Notes: generated by a model not told the origin, from the sequence alone. A stretch of DNA of 64,000 bases from an uncultured Lacinutrix sp. (GCA_937129145.1 CAKZMU010000009.1:80551-144550); one strand, 5' to 3'; positions 3,464 through 30,988 are shown, counted from the first letter of the stretch. A program made the numbers and translations.

Positions 3464-5232
3464 AAATGAAGTCTAAGCTCCTTATAATTACATTCTTAAT
3501 TACCTGTTTTGCTTCAGCACAAGTTACTTTTGAAGCGAAAGTCAGCAAGAAAAAATTAGGCATAAACGAGCGTTTACGCATTGATTTTGTGATGAATAAG
3601 GATGGCGATAACTTCACGCCACCTAGTTTTGAAAATTTTACTATTGTGGGTGGACCAAGTCAAACCATAAGCACACAATGGCTAAACGGCGTTAAAAAAT
3701 CTTCAAAAACGTTTAGCTACTTCTTAGCACCAAAAAAAAGAGGAAAATTCACTATTGGTCAATCTACTATAGAAATTGATGGTGAAATCTACAAAACAGT
3801 CCCTGTTACTATAGAGGTGACTGCTGCTATAGACAAACCAAAAGACCCTAACGACCCTAATTATATTGCTTCCCAAAGCATCCATTTGGTTGCCGAAGTC
3901 TCTAAAACCAATCCTTATTTAAACGAGGCTATTACAGTAGTTTACAAGCTCTATATTTCGCCAAATACAGGCGTTGAAACATGGCGAGAACTGGACAATC
4001 CTAGATATACCGATTTTTGGAGTCAGAATATAAATGTAAAAGAATTAAAGCTAATCCCAAGTAAATATAAAGGTGAAGATTATAGATATGTAGTATTAAG
4101 AAAAACTGTGTTATACCCTCAAAAAACAGGGAAGTTAAATATTGAACCTTTAACTTTAGATGTTAAAGTACAAGTGCCAACCAATAGACGTGATATTTTT
4201 GGAAGTAGGATGGTGAAAATGGTAAGTCGTACGGTTGCAGCAGGCAATAGAACAATTAATGTAAAGCCATTACCTGAAGCTGGGAAGCCATTGGGTTTTT
4301 CAGGAGCTGTTGGGGATTTTGACTTTGAGGTATCTACAAATAAAAGTAAGTTAAAAGCGACCGAGGCATTACAAGCTACAATAAAAGTATCTGGGAAAGG
4401 GAATTTAAAATTGTTTGAGCTTCCTAAATTAACATTGCCAAGTTCATTGGAAGTGTATGAACCAGAACACAGCGAAAAAGTATCCACAAACTTATCGGGA
4501 ATGCAAGGTCAAATAGCCGATAATTATACCATAGTACCTTCCTTTCAAGGAAAATACCCAATACCAAGTGTGTCGTTTTCATATTTTGACTTAAAAACGA
4601 AAAGGTATAAAACAATCACATCAGACGAAATTGTTATAAATGTCAACGAAGGTCCAATTAACAATAGTGCTGAACGCAACGACAATAATTCAAACCTTAC
4701 AAAGCAGCCTATTACGCAATCTGGAGGACAATTTCTATCGTTTAAAACAACAACAAAGTTCATTCCTAAAGAATCTTCGTATTTCTTTAAATCACGATTA
4801 TTTTGGATATTGTTGTTAGTGCCTTTTTTAATGATACCGCTGGCAATTTTCTTAAGACATAAAAAAGAAGAAAGAGACGGTGATGTTGTTGGAAACAAGA
4901 TTAGAGCAGCCAATAAATTAGCACGCAAATACTTGGGTGAGGCTAAAAAATCTTTAGGCAATAAAGAACAGTTTTATAACGCATTGGAACGTGCTTTACA
5001 TAATTATCTAAAAGCCAAACTGAATATTGAAACGAGTGACTTTAGTAAAGATAAAATTGAAGATTTATTAGCGAATAAATCTGTAAATAAAGATTCTATA
5101 GCAGAGTTTATTGATTTATTAAAAAGTTGCGAATTGGCTAGATATACGCCATTTACAAATGTAGAAATGCAACAGGATTATACTAAGGCATCACAAGTAA
5201 TATCTATTATTGACAAACAAATAAGACGATAA
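3457..5232 (+). CDS. batD: BatD (oxygen-tolerance protein; signal peptide, one C-terminal TM)
   Basis: ~590 aa with an N-terminal signal, a TM near aa 455 followed by a cytoplasmic helical tail; position in the operon. Confidence 0.8.
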   Translation: MVKMKSKLLIITFLITCFASAQVTFEAKVSKKKLGINERLRIDFVMNKDGDNFTPPSFENFTIVGGPSQTISTQWLNGVKKSSKTFSYFLAPKKRGKFTIGQSTIEIDGEIYKTVPVTIEVTAAIDKPKDPNDPNYIASQSIHLVAEVSKTNPYLNEAITVVYKLYISPNTGVETWRELDNPRYTDFWSQNINVKELKLIPSKYKGEDYRYVVLRKTVLYPQKTGKLNIEPLTLDVKVQVPTNRRDIFGSRMVKMVSRTVAAGNRTINVKPLPEAGKPLGFSGAVGDFDFEVSTNKSKLKATEALQATIKVSGKGNLKLFELPKLTLPSSLEVYEPEHSEKVSTNLSGMQGQIADNYTIVPSFQGKYPIPSVSFSYFDLKTKRYKTITSDEIVINVNEGPINNSAERNDNNSNLTKQPITQSGGQFLSFKTTTKFIPKESSYFFKSRLFWILLLVPFLMIPLAIFLRHKKEERDGDVVGNKIRAANKLARKYLGEAKKSLGNKEQFYNALERALHNYLKAKLNIETSDFSKDKIEDLLANKSVNKDSIAEFIDLLKSCELARYTPFTNVEMQQDYTKASQVISIIDKQIRR

Positions 5233-29529: not shown

Positions 29530-29613
29530 GGGAACTCGTCAACGTTGGAGAGTTGGTGCAGATTGTAAACCTGTTGCTTAAATGCTAAGAAAGTTCGAAT
29601 CTTTCAGTTCCCA
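29530..29613 (+). tRNA. tRNA-Tyr(GTA), class II (long variable arm)
   Basis: Acceptor GGGAACT/AGTTCCC, anticodon loop ttGTAaa, variable stem-loop cttaAATGCtaag, T-arm GAAAGttcgaatCTTTC; one A·C mismatch in the anticodon stem. Confidence 0.7.
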
Positions 29614-29627
29614 CAAATAAATAGATT

Positions 29628-29700
29628 GACAAGGTGGCTGAACGGTTAAGGCAACAGACTGCAAATCTGTTTTTTGTGAGTTCAAATCTCACCCTTGTCT
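29628..29700 (+). tRNA. tRNA-Cys(GCA)
   Basis: Acceptor GACAAGG/CCTTGTC, anticodon arm ACAGActGCAaaTCTGT, T-arm GTGAGttcaaatCTCAC. Confidence 0.85.
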
Positions 29701-29706
29701 CAAAAT

Positions 29707-29779
29707 AGTATCGTAGCTCAATGGCTAGAGCGCTCGGTTGTCTCCCGAGAAGTTGCGGGTTCGAATCTCGTCGGTACTG
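29707..29779 (+). tRNA. tRNA-Asp(GTC), noncanonical (A1:U72, U37)
   Basis: Acceptor AGTATCG/CGGTACT, D arm GCTCaatggctaGAGC, anticodon arm CTCGGttGTCtcCCGAG, T-arm GCGGGttcgaatCTCGT. Confidence 0.65.
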
Positions 29780-29780
29780 C

Positions 29781-29844
29781 GAAGCAGTTTAAGAGATGAG
29801 AAGTTTACCCTGAGCGTAGTCGAAGGGAATCTTGTCGGTACTGC
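29781..29844 (+). repeat. 46-nt conserved spacer module (…AAGAGATGAGAAGTTTAccCTGAGCGtAGTCGAAGg) followed by an 18-nt direct repeat (17/18 identical) of the tRNA-Asp T-loop-to-3'-end segment
   Basis: gaatctCgtcggtactgc at 29763–29780 recurs as gaatctTgtcggtactgc at 29827–29844; the intervening module is ~85–90% identical to the one at 30183–30226. Confidence 0.8.
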
Positions 29845-29848
29845 AAAT

Positions 29849-29931
29849 CTGGGAGGATAATCCCGAAGGTTCGGGAGTGGTTTACTCGCTTTGGAAGCGA
29901 GAGGTTGTAGGTTCAAATCCTACCTCTCAGA
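29849..29931 (+). tRNA. tRNA-Pro(TGG)-like gene with an aberrant 29-nt D region; possibly a pseudogene
   Basis: Acceptor CTGGGAG/CTCTCAG (one G·U pair), perfect anticodon arm CTCGCttTGGaaGCGAG, perfect T arm GTAGGttcaaatCCTAC. The D region is ~10 nt too long and contains the hairpin TCCCGAaggtTCGGGA. Confidence 0.45.
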
Positions 29932-29937
29932 CAAAAT

Positions 29938-30009
29938 ACTCCGTTAGTCAAATGGCTAAGACGCCTGACTTTCTATCAGGAATTAAGGGTTCAATTCCCT
30001 TACGGAGTA
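29938..30009 (+). tRNA. tRNA-Glu(TTC), noncanonical (A1:U72, U37)
   Basis: Acceptor ACTCCGT/ACGGAGT, anticodon arm CCTGActTTCtaTCAGG, T arm AAGGGttcaattCCCTT. Confidence 0.65.
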
Positions 30010-30014
30010 CACAT

Positions 30015-30100
30015 TGAGATATAGCTTAATTGGTAGAGCGTCGCTCTCATAAGGCGAATGGTTTAGGTTCTCCCGATAGTTATCGGGACTAATATCTCAA
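30015..30100 (+). tRNA. tRNA-Met/Ile2(CAT)-like gene with an 18-nt hairpin insertion in the T loop; possibly a pseudogene
   Basis: Acceptor TGAGATA/TATCTCA, D arm GCTTaattggtaGAGC, anticodon arm TCGCTctCATaaGGCGA. The T region is TTAG-gttc-[TCCCGATAgtTATCGGGA]-CTAA. Confidence 0.45.
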
Positions 30101-30106
30101 CAACAC

Positions 30107-30179
30107 GCAGGAATGGCGAAACGGCAAACGCACTCGACTTAGAATCGAGAAACTGGGAGTTCGAATCTCTCTTCCTGTA
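30107..30179 (+). tRNA. Class-I (short variable arm) tRNA with Leu anticodon TAG
   Basis: Acceptor GCAGGAA/TTCCTGT, D arm GCGaaacggcaaaCGC, anticodon arm CTCGActTAGaaTCGAG, variable region aaact, T arm GGGAGttcgaatCTCTC, A73. Confidence 0.55.
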
Positions 30180-30182
30180 CGA

Positions 30183-30246
30183 AGTAAGGAAAGAGATGAG
30201 AAGTTTATGCTGAGCGAAGTCGAAGTGAATCTCTCTTCCTGTACGA
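30183..30246 (+). repeat. 44-nt conserved spacer module followed by a perfect 20-nt direct repeat of the upstream tRNA's T-loop-to-3'-end segment
   Basis: gaatctctcttcctgtacga at 30163–30182 and again at 30227–30246; the module agtaaggaAAGAGATGAGAAGTTTAtgCTGAGCGaAGTCGAAGt is homologous to 29781–29826. Confidence 0.85.
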
Positions 30247-30247
30247 T

Positions 30248-30321
30248 GCTCCACTAGCCCAAATGGAAGAGGCAACAGTTTTAAGCGCTGTTAAGTCCAA
30301 GTTCGAATCTTGGGTGGAGTA
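30248..30321 (+). tRNA. Class-I tRNA with Leu anticodon TAA
   Basis: Acceptor GCTCCAC/GTGGAGT (G1·U72), anticodon arm ACAGTttTAAgcGCTGT, variable region taagt, T arm CCAAGttcgaatCTTGG, A73. Confidence 0.5.
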
Positions 30322-30327
30322 CAAAAT

Positions 30328-30451
30328 AAGCTTATGGTGTAATGGAAAGCACACAAGGTTTAGCTCATGCATATCTATTTCAAGAAATAGGTATTCGTGA
30401 ATGCAAAGCATTTCGAACCTTGGAGTATGGGTTCAAGTCCTATTAAGCTTA
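30328..30451 (+). tRNA. 124-nt tRNA-like gene carrying a ~52-nt structured insertion in the anticodon loop
   Basis: Acceptor AAGCTTA/TAAGCTT, D arm GTGTaatggaaaGCAC, anticodon stem CAAGG…CCTTG separated by 59 nt, T arm ATGGGttcaagtCCTAT. Mature anticodon TAG if spliced at 37/38, TCG if at 33/34. Confidence 0.45.
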
Positions 30452-30456
30452 CAAAA

Positions 30457-30527
30457 TAACCTGTGGTGTAACGGTAACACTCAAGATTTTGATTCTTGTA
30501 TTATAGGTTCGAATCCTATCAGGTTAT
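30457..30527 (+). tRNA. tRNA-Gln(TTG)
   Basis: U1:A72 acceptor TAACCTG/CAGGTTA, D arm GTGTaacggtaACAC, anticodon arm CAAGAttTTGatTCTTG, T arm ATAGGttcgaatCCTAT. Confidence 0.8.
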
Positions 30528-30535
30528 CAAAAAAT

Positions 30536-30608
30536 GGAACAGTAGCAAAGTTGGTCAATGCGTCGGACTGAAAATCTGAAAATACAGGTTCAATTCCTGT
30601 CTGTTCCA
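30536..30608 (+). tRNA. tRNA-Phe(GAA)
   Basis: Acceptor GGAACAG/CTGTTCC, anticodon arm TCGGActGAAaaTCTGA, T arm ACAGGttcaattCCTGT. Confidence 0.85.
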
Positions 30609-30621
30609 CTAAAATTAAAGA

Positions 30622-30639
30622 TTCCTGCCTATGCAGGAA
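30622..30639 (+). other. Perfect 7-bp hairpin TTCCTGCctatGCAGGAA inside the array; the agattcctgc motif recurs at 31045–31056
   Basis: Inverted repeat read directly; no T-tract follows, so it is not a canonical terminator. Confidence 0.4.
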
Positions 30640-30767
30640 ATAATATCAAGCTGGTCTTGTTGAGTGTTTCGGTATAGCACTATTGTATAAATCGTTGCAG
30701 AAATGCATCATGAGTTTATGTTCAACTAGACTTGAAGGTTTTGACTGTTAACCAAAAAATGGTCTCC

Positions 30768-30843
30768 CCCTATAGGTCGTGGGTTCGACTCCCACTTATC
30801 CCAATTGGGATAGTAGTTCAGTGGTTAGAACAATAGGATGTAG
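30768..30843 (+). tRNA. Apparently circularly permuted tRNA gene: 3' half (nt 38–73), 3-nt linker, then 5' half (nt 1–37); the mature anticodon would be GTA
   Basis: 3' half: c-CCTAT-aggtc-GTGGGttcgactCCCAC-TTATCCC-a. Linker att. 5' half: GGGATAG-ta-GTTCagtggttaGAAC-a-ATAGG-atGTAg. The acceptor pairs over 7 bp and the anticodon stem ATAGG/CCTAT pairs over 5 bp. Confidence 0.45.
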
Positions 30844-30888
30844 GTGTTGCTGGTTCGATTCCAGTCGTTTGCTTGGAGAAATTCCTTG

Positions 30889-30948
30889 GCAATAGTAGCT
30901 CAATTGGTAGAGCACTGCACTTTTAATGCAGGTTTGGACTCAAAATCC
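30889..30948 (+). pseudogene. Truncated tRNA-Lys(TTT)-like 5' portion with a degenerate T arm and no 3' acceptor strand
   Basis: GCAATAG-ta-GCTCaattggtaGAGC-a-CTGCActTTTaaTGCAG-gttt, then only a 3-bp GGA/TCC stem; no complementary 3' acceptor strand nearby. Confidence 0.4.
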
Positions 30949-30988
30949 ACAATCAAAAGCCCATCATCTTTTAAAACTGATGACCAAC

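Follow-up and report, generated by a model that had tools for sequence, protein, structure and literature searches.

The DNA analyzed here, a 64,000-nt stretch from an uncultured Lacinutrix sp. (GCA_937129145.1, CAKZMU010000009.1:80551-144550; "the window" below), is a piece of low-GC (about 34%) Flavobacteriaceae chromosome, with genes for RecJ, an AddAB-like helicase-nuclease, AccC, alanine racemase, PdxA and T9SS-sorted proteins. A phage origin was considered and is ruled out by these housekeeping and T9SS genes; comparison with phage databases gave generic tRNA similarity and one chance match. Between a TPR gene and a Band-7 gene lies an array of tRNA genes (Table 1), which is also found upstream of Band-7 in many other Flavobacteriaceae genera. 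Eighty syntenic loci were gathered using the Band-7 protein (from Gaetbulibacter, Jejuia, Wocania, Winogradskyella, Seonamhaeicola, Hyunsoonleella, Aquimarina, Tenacibaculum, Cellulophaga, Flagellimonas and others), most of them with the array upstream of the Band-7 gene.

The array has several peculiarities. Its Leu-anticodon tRNAs are 74-75 nt long and lack the long variable arm, the anticodons ATA, TAT, AAA and ACA occur, some members are low-scoring or degenerate, and among the array loci the Arg anticodon switches between ACG, TCG and TCT. It may be an accessory set under relaxed constraint. The window's array holds a single Arg gene, which is interrupted.

An original prediction, made from the sequence, had described this gene as a tRNA with its arms and discriminator in register and a 52-nt structured insertion separating the two strands of the anticodon stem by 59 nt. 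All of these parts were recovered. The conserved T-loop and D-loop bases are present within 30328-30451, and ARAGORN, with introns allowed, calls a 73-nt tRNA-Arg(tcg) and places an insert of 52 nt between nt 32 and 33; the 7-bp hairpin and the ATGCaaaGCAT palindrome reported within the insert are there as well. The prediction had left the mature anticodon as either TAG or TCG, and it is TCG that fits the position called by ARAGORN, while TAG drops out. The 7-nt anticodon loop, TTTCGAA, is not continuous in the gene and is restored only without 30360-30411; the exact junctions are ambiguous within 30359-30413, since both flanks have runs of T. Neither ARAGORN at default settings nor the Rfam tRNA model reports the interrupted gene, although both call its neighbors. 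Folded in full, the 124 nt give an intact cloverleaf (z = -3.1) whose anticodon arm is extended (z = -4.3 for this arm by itself) and on which the insert forms a separate three-way junction.

Table 1. Features of the interrupted tRNA-Arg gene, its insert and the surrounding array (positions counted from the first base of the window).
Feature	Position	Strand	Sequence, composition or basis
tRNA array hosting tRNA-Arg	29530-30960	+	Tyr, Cys, Asp, Pro, Glu, Met-like, Leu-TAG, Leu-TAA, Arg, Gln, Phe, then degenerate tRNA-like pieces
tRNA-Arg, 5' part	30328-30359	+	sequence; ARAGORN with introns; 97% identity to L001 5012-5042
tRNA-Arg, acceptor	30328-30334 / 30444-30450	+	AAGCTTA / TAAGCTT; discriminator A 30451
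tRNA-Arg, D arm	30337-30352	+	GTGT-aatggaaa-GCAC; preceded by nt 8-9, then nt 26
tRNA-Arg, anticodon stem	30354-30358 / 30418-30422	+	CAAGG / CCTTG; strands 59 nt apart
tRNA-Arg, loop nt 32	30359	+	T; last base of 5' part
tRNA-Arg, 3' part	30412-30451	+	sequence; ARAGORN with introns; 97% identity to L001 5046-5083
tRNA-Arg, loop nt 33-38	30412-30417	+	TTCGAA; anticodon TCG 30413-30415
tRNA-Arg, variable loop	30423-30426	+	
tRNA-Arg, T arm	30427-30443	+	ATGGG-ttcaagt-CCTAT
Type-1 insertion element, 52 nt	30360-30411	-	absent from orthologs; R1 covariance match; ARAGORN intron 32/33
Element sense strand		-	reads ATGCTTTGCAT TCACGA ATACCTATTTCTTGAAATAGATATGCA TGAGCTAA
Hairpin Pa (AATGC-nnn-GCATT)	30400-30412	-	most conserved part of type-1 family; pairs 13-17/74-78, alignment A4
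Palindrome ATGC-aaa-GCAT	30401-30411		sequence
Helix 3, 5' strand (CACGA-AT)	30393-30399	-	pair counts on family alignment
Helix 3, 5' strand, single bases	30393-30397	+	Y = g30397; tandem G.A = c30396, t30395; X1 = t30394; X2 = a30393
Helix 3, 3' strand and 3' terminal motif (A-TGAGC-TAA)	30360-30368	-	+ strand reads TTAGCTCAT
Hairpin Pb, apical part (CTATTTC-aa-GAAATAG)	30375-30390	-	variable between copies

Comparison with other loci points to insertion into a previously intact gene. At the syntenic position in the nearest relative, a Gaetbulibacter sp. (L001; neighboring gene 92% identical at the amino acid level), there is an uninterrupted tRNA-Arg(ACG) (5012-5083, caagg-CTACGAA-ccttg), to which the remainder of the window's gene is 97% identical, with only two substitutions in the tRNA body. 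The insert is likewise absent from the syntenic loci L018, L006, L046, L023, L037 and others, and intact Arg(TCG) alleles of the window's gene family occur in L059, L060 and L078. Interrupted homologous genes are found in L033, L047 and L042; for the Arg(TCT) genes of L047 and L033, intact orthologs with the loop TTTCTAA indicate a clean insertion.

The loop of L001 (CTACGAA) and the restored loop of the window (TTTCGAA) do not match, a difference that would require two extra loop substitutions before the insertion, or co-conversion, or import of an already interrupted allele. Two additional loop changes in a gene otherwise differing at two positions would suggest one of the latter two. Co-conversion of loop bases by the element was rejected: an interrupted tRNA-Ser gene keeps its native TTCAA^TT flanks (^, element boundary), and the Arg(TCT) cases are pure insertions.

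The insert belongs to a family of elements, designated type-1 here. A covariance model (R1), built from 16 copies, finds 56 copies in 37 loci at a cut-off of E<=1e-4, about ten of these loci being metagenome contigs; a metagenome pattern scan gave mostly chance matches, with real copies in only about 10 of 80 loci. The model, whose copies come from other genomes, matches the window over its full length at 30353-30424 on the - strand (79 bits, E about 3e-17). This is the only type-1 copy in the 64-kb window, which contains no donor copy of the element. Type-1 elements are 46-54 nt long, non-coding and structured, and almost all lie within the conserved Flavobacteriaceae tRNA array. Apart from tRNA, Rfam contains no match to them, and no account of such an element turned up in the literature, searched by topic and by sequence string. 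The original prediction had taken a repeat scattered through intergenic regions as a finding that would speak against it; the insert is indeed a member of a repeat family, which in essence refutes that prediction's intron reading, although the copies are in tRNA loops, mostly T-loops, rather than in intergenic sequence.

Most copies are in T-loops, after nt 58/59 and in tRNA-sense orientation, immediately following five bases of the T-loop motif (TTCGA^A..^T). Their layout is GG-TTCGAA^ATGCnnnGCAT TCAYGA ..hairpin.. YGAR(C)TAA^T-CC, and the window insert is the reverse complement of this. The hosts comprise at least 13 isoacceptors (Pro, Met, Phe, His, Ile, Gln, Leu(TAG), Leu(TAA), Ser, Cys, Asp, Lys, Asn, Arg(TCT)). 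Excision in silico yields a tRNA callable by ARAGORN in 33 of 39 cases, in the window a tRNA-Arg(tcg). Among cultured carriers, Aquimarina litoralis JCM 15974 (L047) combines a sense copy in the T-loop of tRNA-His with an antisense one in the anticodon loop of tRNA-Arg(TCT), and Winogradskyella algicola IMCC33238 (L013) has T-loop copies in Met and Ser genes; Flagellimonas oceanensis 40DY170 (L038) is a further carrier, and Aquimarina sp. LLG6339-5 (CP159328) has an interrupted tRNA-Gln(TTG). A few hosts are truncated or decayed (L073:2359, L011, L007, L097), and one copy (L139) is outside any tRNA, just past the stop codon of an aconitase gene at a locus without tRNAs.

Placement and orientation follow a single rule. 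A stringent pattern picks out 15 sense copies, every one in a T-loop, and four antisense copies, every one in the anticodon loop of an Arg(TCG) or Arg(TCT) gene; outside this set, antisense copies occupy the anticodon loop of a Gln(TTG) gene (L159) and an Arg-like gene in decay (L097). In Arg genes antisense copies recur in at least four lineages, with the core kept. Read as the reverse complement, the anticodon loops that host the four stringent antisense copies are GG-TT(C/A)GAA..A-(C/T)CC. The motif common to all sites, on the element's own strand, is a stem ending in GG, then TTCGAA (or TTAGAA, TTCAA, TTTGAA or ATCAAA), the element, one or two loop bases, and CC; insertion always follows TT(C/A/T)(G/A)AA, in one constant polarity. 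In the window, the bottom strand, caaGG-TTCGAA^..^A-CCttg, has the element between positions 6 and 7 of a TTCGAA-type, G-C closed 7-nt loop, and its polarity relative to the motif is the same as in the T-loops. On that strand the Arg anticodon arm, GG-TTCGAA-A-CC, is a near-perfect imitation of a T arm, GG-TTCGAA-T-CC, which explains the reversal of the window copy. Sense placement in T-loops together with antisense placement in anticodon loops, on one motif, indicates that a DNA motif on either strand guides placement, rather than the tRNA transcript. All junctions are consistent either with no target duplication or with a 2-nt AA duplication (TTCG-AA-(element)-AA-T). Terminal inverted repeats were not found: the two ends of the element (ATGC... 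and ...GAGCTAA) are not inverted copies of each other. On these sequence comparisons, the locus is most likely a recently interrupted tRNA-Arg gene, with an inverted copy of an apparently undescribed, tRNA-loop-specific structured element.

The element has a conserved fold, derived with RNAalifold and then explicit pair counting on the 56-sequence model alignment (51 distinct rows). There are three helices: the host stem, hairpin Pa and a helix 3. This arrangement pairs 94.4% of cells, where slid registers reach 43% at most, and its covariation score of 0.533 compares with 0.203 in shuffles (0/500). Pa (AAUGC/GCAUU) is 98.8% paired, with the compensatory variants ATGT/ACAT, ATAT/ATAT and ATAC/GTAT. 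Helix 3 consists in order of a Y-R pair, tandem G.A and A.G mismatches, and the pairs X1-Y1 and X2-Y2, followed by a variable hairpin (in the window Pb, to which CCTATTT...AAATAG in copies of L013, L073 and L097 is similar). The Y of CAYGA pairs with the R of YGARC as C-G (24), U-A (24), U-G (1) or otherwise (2); the mismatches are G.A in 37 of 42 (otherwise A.A) and A.G in 42 of 42; X1-Y1 is A-U (37) or G-C (10), and X2-Y2 is U-A (34) or C-G (12). The Y-R and X1-Y1 states are found in all four combinations, so that the two covariations are not one inherited event. Both strands of helix 3 read 5'-YGAR-3', the context preferred by tandem sheared G.A pairs in nearest-neighbor and NMR work.

Other readings of the same bases were tried and rejected. 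A "P0" helix between the T-loop GUUC and the element's GARC, which would have been a mirror-image bulge-helix-bulge (BHB), is ruled out because the R in question pairs with the Y of CAYGA (CG 24, UA 24). An alternative register, UCAYG with CRUGA, receives no support from the second subfamily, and box C/D-like or SECIS-like interpretations of the G.A motif lack core positions or the bulge and have no Rfam match.

The G.A motif is confined to the element's own strand, because its complement gives pyrimidine-pyrimidine mismatches, and it is the one feature by which the element's strand was assigned. Fold energies were also considered as an indicator of the strand of function: before composition control, T-loop copies gained 1.9 kcal/mol when folded as their reverse complement (p = 5e-4), a preference that vanished in composition-matched shuffles (z -0.80 vs -0.76, p = 0.77) and is an artefact of U-richness. 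In the window, the G.A motif is on the non-transcribed strand. Pre-tRNA-Arg would therefore retain Pa and the Watson-Crick pairs c30364-g30397, a30367-u30394 and u30368-a30393, with the mismatches u30365.c30396 and c30366.u30395 where the element strand has G.A and A.G.

The ages of copies can be judged from their similarity. Copies in the same host gene of different species are 0.83-1.0 identical (Gln, three Aquimarina loci, 0.94-1.0; Ser, Winogradskyella and metagenome loci, 0.94-1.0; Leu(TAA), four Aquimarina loci, 0.83-0.85), while those within one genome are 0.65-0.77 identical and those at one locus 0.41-0.77. The divergence of intragenomic copies argues against a recent burst. Within same-host groups the core differs at 0.17 per site and the variable parts, which align poorly, at 0.49; as copies are found via the core, its conservation could partly be detection bias. 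In 38 of 41 cases the interrupted gene is the sole copy of its isoacceptor in its array. Antisense anticodon-loop copies, in contrast to this shared pattern, are each confined to one lineage whose close relatives have the gene intact; one of them is in a decayed gene. They are closest to each other (window vs L047:2508, 0.85; L033 vs window, 0.78), by a small margin (0.85 vs 0.83 to T-loop copies); similarity margins of this size are too small to tell whether they form a separate sub-lineage. The simplest reading of these patterns is that T-loop copies may be compatible with survival of the host gene, and anticodon-loop copies not.

The interpretation favored here, at a probability of roughly 70%, is that the tRNA-Arg gene of a conserved Flavobacteriaceae array recently received a structured insertion element of the 46-54-nt type, guided by a DNA motif, inverted with respect to the gene, and a dead end. 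A T-arm-like DNA sequence or stem-loop, on either strand, would guide the insertion, which would be carried out by a factor encoded elsewhere; the tandem G.A motif would be the feature recognized by any processing or mobility factor. A transcript with 52 nt between nt 32 and 33 would be unable to decode unless the insert were removed, and that transcript would lack the one conserved, strand-specific feature capable of marking the insert for removal. With the G.A motif on the non-transcribed strand and 52 extra bases in the loop, the window copy is most likely, judging from its sequence, a dead-end insertion that silences the only Arg gene of the array. If the array were the cell's only source of tRNA-Arg, the gene would still have to work, contradicting the "dead end". 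The loop mismatch with L001, not accounted for by this reading, also counts against it, as does the lack of a donor copy and of a mobility gene within the 64-kb window. T-loop copies, by comparison, may be removed from the transcript, or may be tolerated at positions 59/60. These nucleotides normally bulge out of the T-loop motif.

A wider, tentative extension of this interpretation is that the type-1 family could be a new class of bacterial tRNA intervening sequence: a mobile element of about 50 nt whose tandem-G.A three-way junction would permit either excision from pre-tRNAs or tolerance as an extra arm at 59/60, and which would spread via T-arm-like DNA stem-loops, the window copy being a case of spreading onto the "wrong" strand. 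This general claim is a good deal less secure than the account of the window copy itself.

Another possibility, somewhat less likely again, is that the family is a purely selfish miniature element in a redundant, decaying accessory array. All copies, including those in T-loops, would then kill their hosts, and the fold would serve mobility only, as single-stranded DNA recognized by a transposase encoded elsewhere. The non-canonical composition of the array is in keeping with this, as is the way in which it changes: the window and L001 arrays are nearly identical (tRNA-Tyr 100%), yet differ by five precise structured indels, namely the type-1 element in Arg, a second type of element after tRNA-Asp and again after tRNA-Leu(TAG) (there shared with L002), a palindromic hairpin in place of part of the tRNA-Met T-loop, and an 11-nt hairpin-forming insertion in the D region of tRNA-Pro. 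An array this odd and dynamic, and possibly accessory, keeps the selfish explanation alive; the truncated or decayed hosts, the copy outside any tRNA and the setting of orientation by a DNA motif also fit it. The age structure does not: divergent intragenomic copies, with same-host copies common to several species, are the opposite of an active burst. Also opposed to it are the high proportions of hosts that are intact after excision and that are the only isoacceptor copy in their array, the three-fold greater conservation of the core over the variable parts in old copies, and the lack of terminal inverted repeats. The synteny of the array across many genera further argues for its retention for some reason.

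Distinctly unlikely, though with a number of observations behind it, is the idea that the element is a new bacterial tRNA intron spliced in the antisense orientation too, with an endonuclease and a ligase such as RtcB recognizing features present on both strands (Pa, the Watson-Crick pairs of helix 3, the host-stem junction) to give a functional tRNA-Arg(UCG). The tRNA body has remained intact, two substitutions from L001, in the only Arg gene of the window's array; the transcript folds well, and the insert makes up a three-way junction of its own; insertions into Arg genes recur in at least four lineages with the core kept; and the anticodon-loop copies are each other's closest relatives. That similarity margin is small, however, and the tandem G.A, the sole strand-specific conserved motif, is lost in the transcript. 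The lineage-private distribution of antisense copies, one of them in a decayed gene, is the pattern of short-lived insertions, and no genes for RtcB, endonuclease-like proteins, transposases or integrases were seen within the 64-kb window.

The original prediction had noted that the size of the insert matches archaeal and eukaryal tRNA introns, and had proposed folding of the flanks into a BHB motif as a check. The size of 52 nt and the anticodon-loop location do resemble those introns, and archaeal mini-introns transpose between tRNA genes and positions (PMC4033280). A protein-spliced intron of this kind is nevertheless very improbable in the window. A BHB has two 3-nt bulges on either side of a 4-bp helix that carries both splice sites. 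Four splice registers would restore a 7-nt loop, and none of them gives such a motif: the nearest approach, the helix GCUC/GAAC, forms three of its four pairs, at the cost of an anticodon-stem base and with a bulge of 5 nt. The position of the insert is 32/33 rather than 37/38, and the insert belongs to a repeat family. Its orientation is opposite to that of the same element in T-loops, which an RNA-level splicing signal would not allow. No gene for RtcB or a splicing endonuclease (EndA/Sen) was seen in the 64-kb window. [quoted passage not shown] A chance hairpin-rich spacer between half-tRNA-like sequences, or an assembly artefact, has in its favor the failure of default tRNA finders and nothing else, and can be dismissed: orthologs exist in interrupted and uninterrupted form, the boundaries are precise, and independent assemblies and metagenomes supply 56 homologous copies.

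What makes the family of wider interest is that dozens of bacterial tRNA genes, of at least 13 isoacceptors and in many Flavobacteriaceae genera, carry a structured T-loop element of about 50 nt that is kept across species. If the interrupted genes are functional, bacteria would have an unrecognized means of removing or tolerating tRNA insertions, and standard tRNA finders would be missing real genes; if they are not, the element would be a selfish one of unusual target specificity, recognizing tRNA stem-loops as DNA. The inverted window copy separates the insertion rule (a DNA motif, on either strand) from any processing rule (strand-specific), and could serve as a natural negative control.

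Several known systems share features with the type-1 elements. Among them are the transposing tRNA mini-introns of archaea (Thermoproteales; Fujishima et al. 2010, reviewed in PMC4033280), which are also shorter than 100 nt and non-coding, with similar sequences in different tRNAs and at non-canonical positions, loops included, and with presence/absence polymorphism between relatives. Transposing mini-introns at non-canonical positions are, however, an archaeal feature tied to BHB-recognizing endonucleases (PMC4033280). They are BHB-defined and always in transcript sense, whereas type-1 elements are bacterial, lack a BHB, are oriented by a DNA motif, and have a conserved core of their own (hairpin plus tandem-G.A helix).

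Group I introns interrupt bacterial tRNA anticodon loops and are mobile. They need a catalytic core (P3-P9) of roughly 100 nt or more, with about 10 helices, and have U at -1 and a terminal G. The original prediction had considered the insert far too short for one, and this holds: it is 52 nt long, with no Rfam intron match at E<=10. Unlike group I introns, the type-1 family is mostly in T-loops, and in the window it is antisense.

The tandem G.A/A.G next to a hairpin, the three-way junction and the type-III-like topology (host stem, Pa, Pb) recall the hammerhead core and the K-turn. The hammerhead, defined by CUGANGA, GAA and the cleavage-site H at a three-way junction, was rejected, the element having UUCAYGA instead of CUGANGA (C3 and G5 missing), an A14 equivalent that covaries as a Watson-Crick partner, extra junction bases and no Rfam match. 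The K-turn was rejected likewise: there is no 3-nt bulge 5' of the G.A pairs, which are flanked directly on both sides by covarying Watson-Crick pairs.

Among mobile elements, MITEs and the Rickettsia palindromic elements are small, non-coding, multi-copy and structured, are mobilized in trans, and insert into genes that can stay intact; type-1 elements share these traits, and would likewise be mobilized in trans. In contrast to MITEs, these have no terminal inverted repeats and at most a 2-nt AA duplication, and their copies within a genome are divergent, where those of DDE-type MITEs are near-identical. Their target specificity is extreme (position 6/7 of a G-C closed, TTCGAA-type 7-nt loop), and they have a covarying internal helix with tandem G.A.

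IS200/IS605-type elements have similar subterminal hairpins at both ends and are longer than the type-1 element, in which Pa and Pb are unrelated and one hairpin starts at the very end. They resemble it in inserting 3' of a short fixed motif, in fixed orientation and with no long duplication, and in having strand-specific hairpins. The type-1 family thus lacks the defining features of group I introns, BHB introns, hammerheads, K-turns and DDE-type MITEs, and its common ground with IS200/IS605-type elements is insertion logic only. By analogy, single-strand transposition of the IS200/IS605 type would explain insertions on either strand of a tRNA gene, the loops being exposed in folded single-stranded DNA.

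The tRNA array of the window holds, in addition to its one type-1 element (from the family of ~50-nt structured insertions found mostly in tRNA T-loops), copies of a second element type, which lie 3' of tRNA genes and gave no match in Rfam. Besides the two copies in the window, 13 more are found in comparison loci (L002, L013, L021, L022, L029, L031, L034-L036, and L074), with tandem double copies in L036 and L074; the element is precisely absent from L001, the Gaetbulibacter sp. locus that is the closest relative. Each copy opens with a host-specific segment that is antisense to the 3' end of the tRNA, continues with a conserved core, GATGAGAAGTTTA-YSC-TGAGCnnnGTCGAA-GKG, and closes by repeating the tRNA's final ~18 nt, which start at GAATC in the T-loop and run to the 3' end. 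Within the core, YSC and GKG covary, and UGAG/CGAA forms the same YGAR/YGAR tandem-G.A context as in the type-1 element.

Features of the tRNA array and of comparison loci, with coordinates
Feature	Sequence	Position	Remarks
Class II tRNA-Tyr(GTA)	window	29530-29613	
Second element type	window	29781-29844	3' of tRNA-Asp(GTC)
tRNA-Pro(TGG), additional D-region hairpin	window	29849-29931	hairpin 29861-29876
tRNA-Met-like gene, anticodon CAT	window	30016-30099	hairpin 30071-30088
tRNA, Leu anticodon TAG	window	30107-30180	
Second element type	window	30181-30244	3' of tRNA-Leu(TAG)
tRNA, Leu anticodon TAA	window	30248-30322	
Circularly permuted tRNA-like module	window	30771-30835	inside conserved non-coding stretch ~30636-30981
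Degenerate tRNA-like sequence	window	30807-30873	array 3' end; 26.2 bits
Degenerate tRNA-like sequence	window	30889-30955	array 3' end; 30.5 bits
Type-1 variant, 93 nt	L056	509-621	in tRNA-Pro T-loop
Type-1 copy not in any tRNA gene	L139	6607-6676	

Two other tRNA genes of the window carry a hairpin each. In the tRNA-Met-like gene a perfect palindrome, TCCCGATA-gt-TATCGGGA, takes the place of the T-loop, which is normal (TTCGATT) in L001; the ortholog in L013 (Winogradskyella algicola IMCC33238) has a type-1 element at the same place. The tRNA-Pro(TGG) hairpin, TCCCGAA-gg-TTCGGGA, resembles it in sequence; 11 nt of it are missing in L001, and the Rfam call at this gene is limited to a truncated tRNA of 61 nt (36 bits). 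Among type-1 elements, the L056 variant has ~40 additional nt within, or in place of, hairpin Pa. The L139 copy, outside any tRNA gene, follows an aconitase stop codon at a distance of 5 nt; TTCGAA still precedes it, and a short, imperfect direct repeat (ATTACGATT / ATTACGAATT) lies on its two sides.

Several tRNAs of the array are themselves atypical. The tRNA-Tyr(GTA), whose anticodon stem has an A.C mismatch at its bottom end, is missed by ARAGORN and scores only 15.6 bits in Rfam, despite which it is 100% identical to its L001 counterpart. A long variable arm is normal for bacterial tRNA-Leu; the two tRNAs with Leu anticodons are class I (74-75 nt, variable loop of 5 nt), the TAG tRNA having 83% identity to Vibrio phage tRNAs. 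Both degenerate sequences have mismatched acceptor stems. Across L001-L080, the syntenic Flavobacteriaceae loci, the anticodon of the orthologous array Arg gene is ACG, TCG, or TCT depending on lineage, and the arrays also hold Tyr ATA, Ile TAT, Phe AAA, Cys ACA, and Asp ATC, anticodons unusual in bacteria.

Another unusual feature is the permuted module, in which a T arm is followed by a closed acceptor-like hairpin (CTTATCCC-aatt-GGGATAG) and then a D arm. No Ro/Rsr gene was seen among the ORFs scanned. The ~350 nt around the module are 70-79% conserved across genera, and the module itself gives a match to the tRNA-like domain of YrlA, a Y-RNA-like family; the score, 32.9 bits (E = 4e-5), falls short of the gathering score, which is 69.
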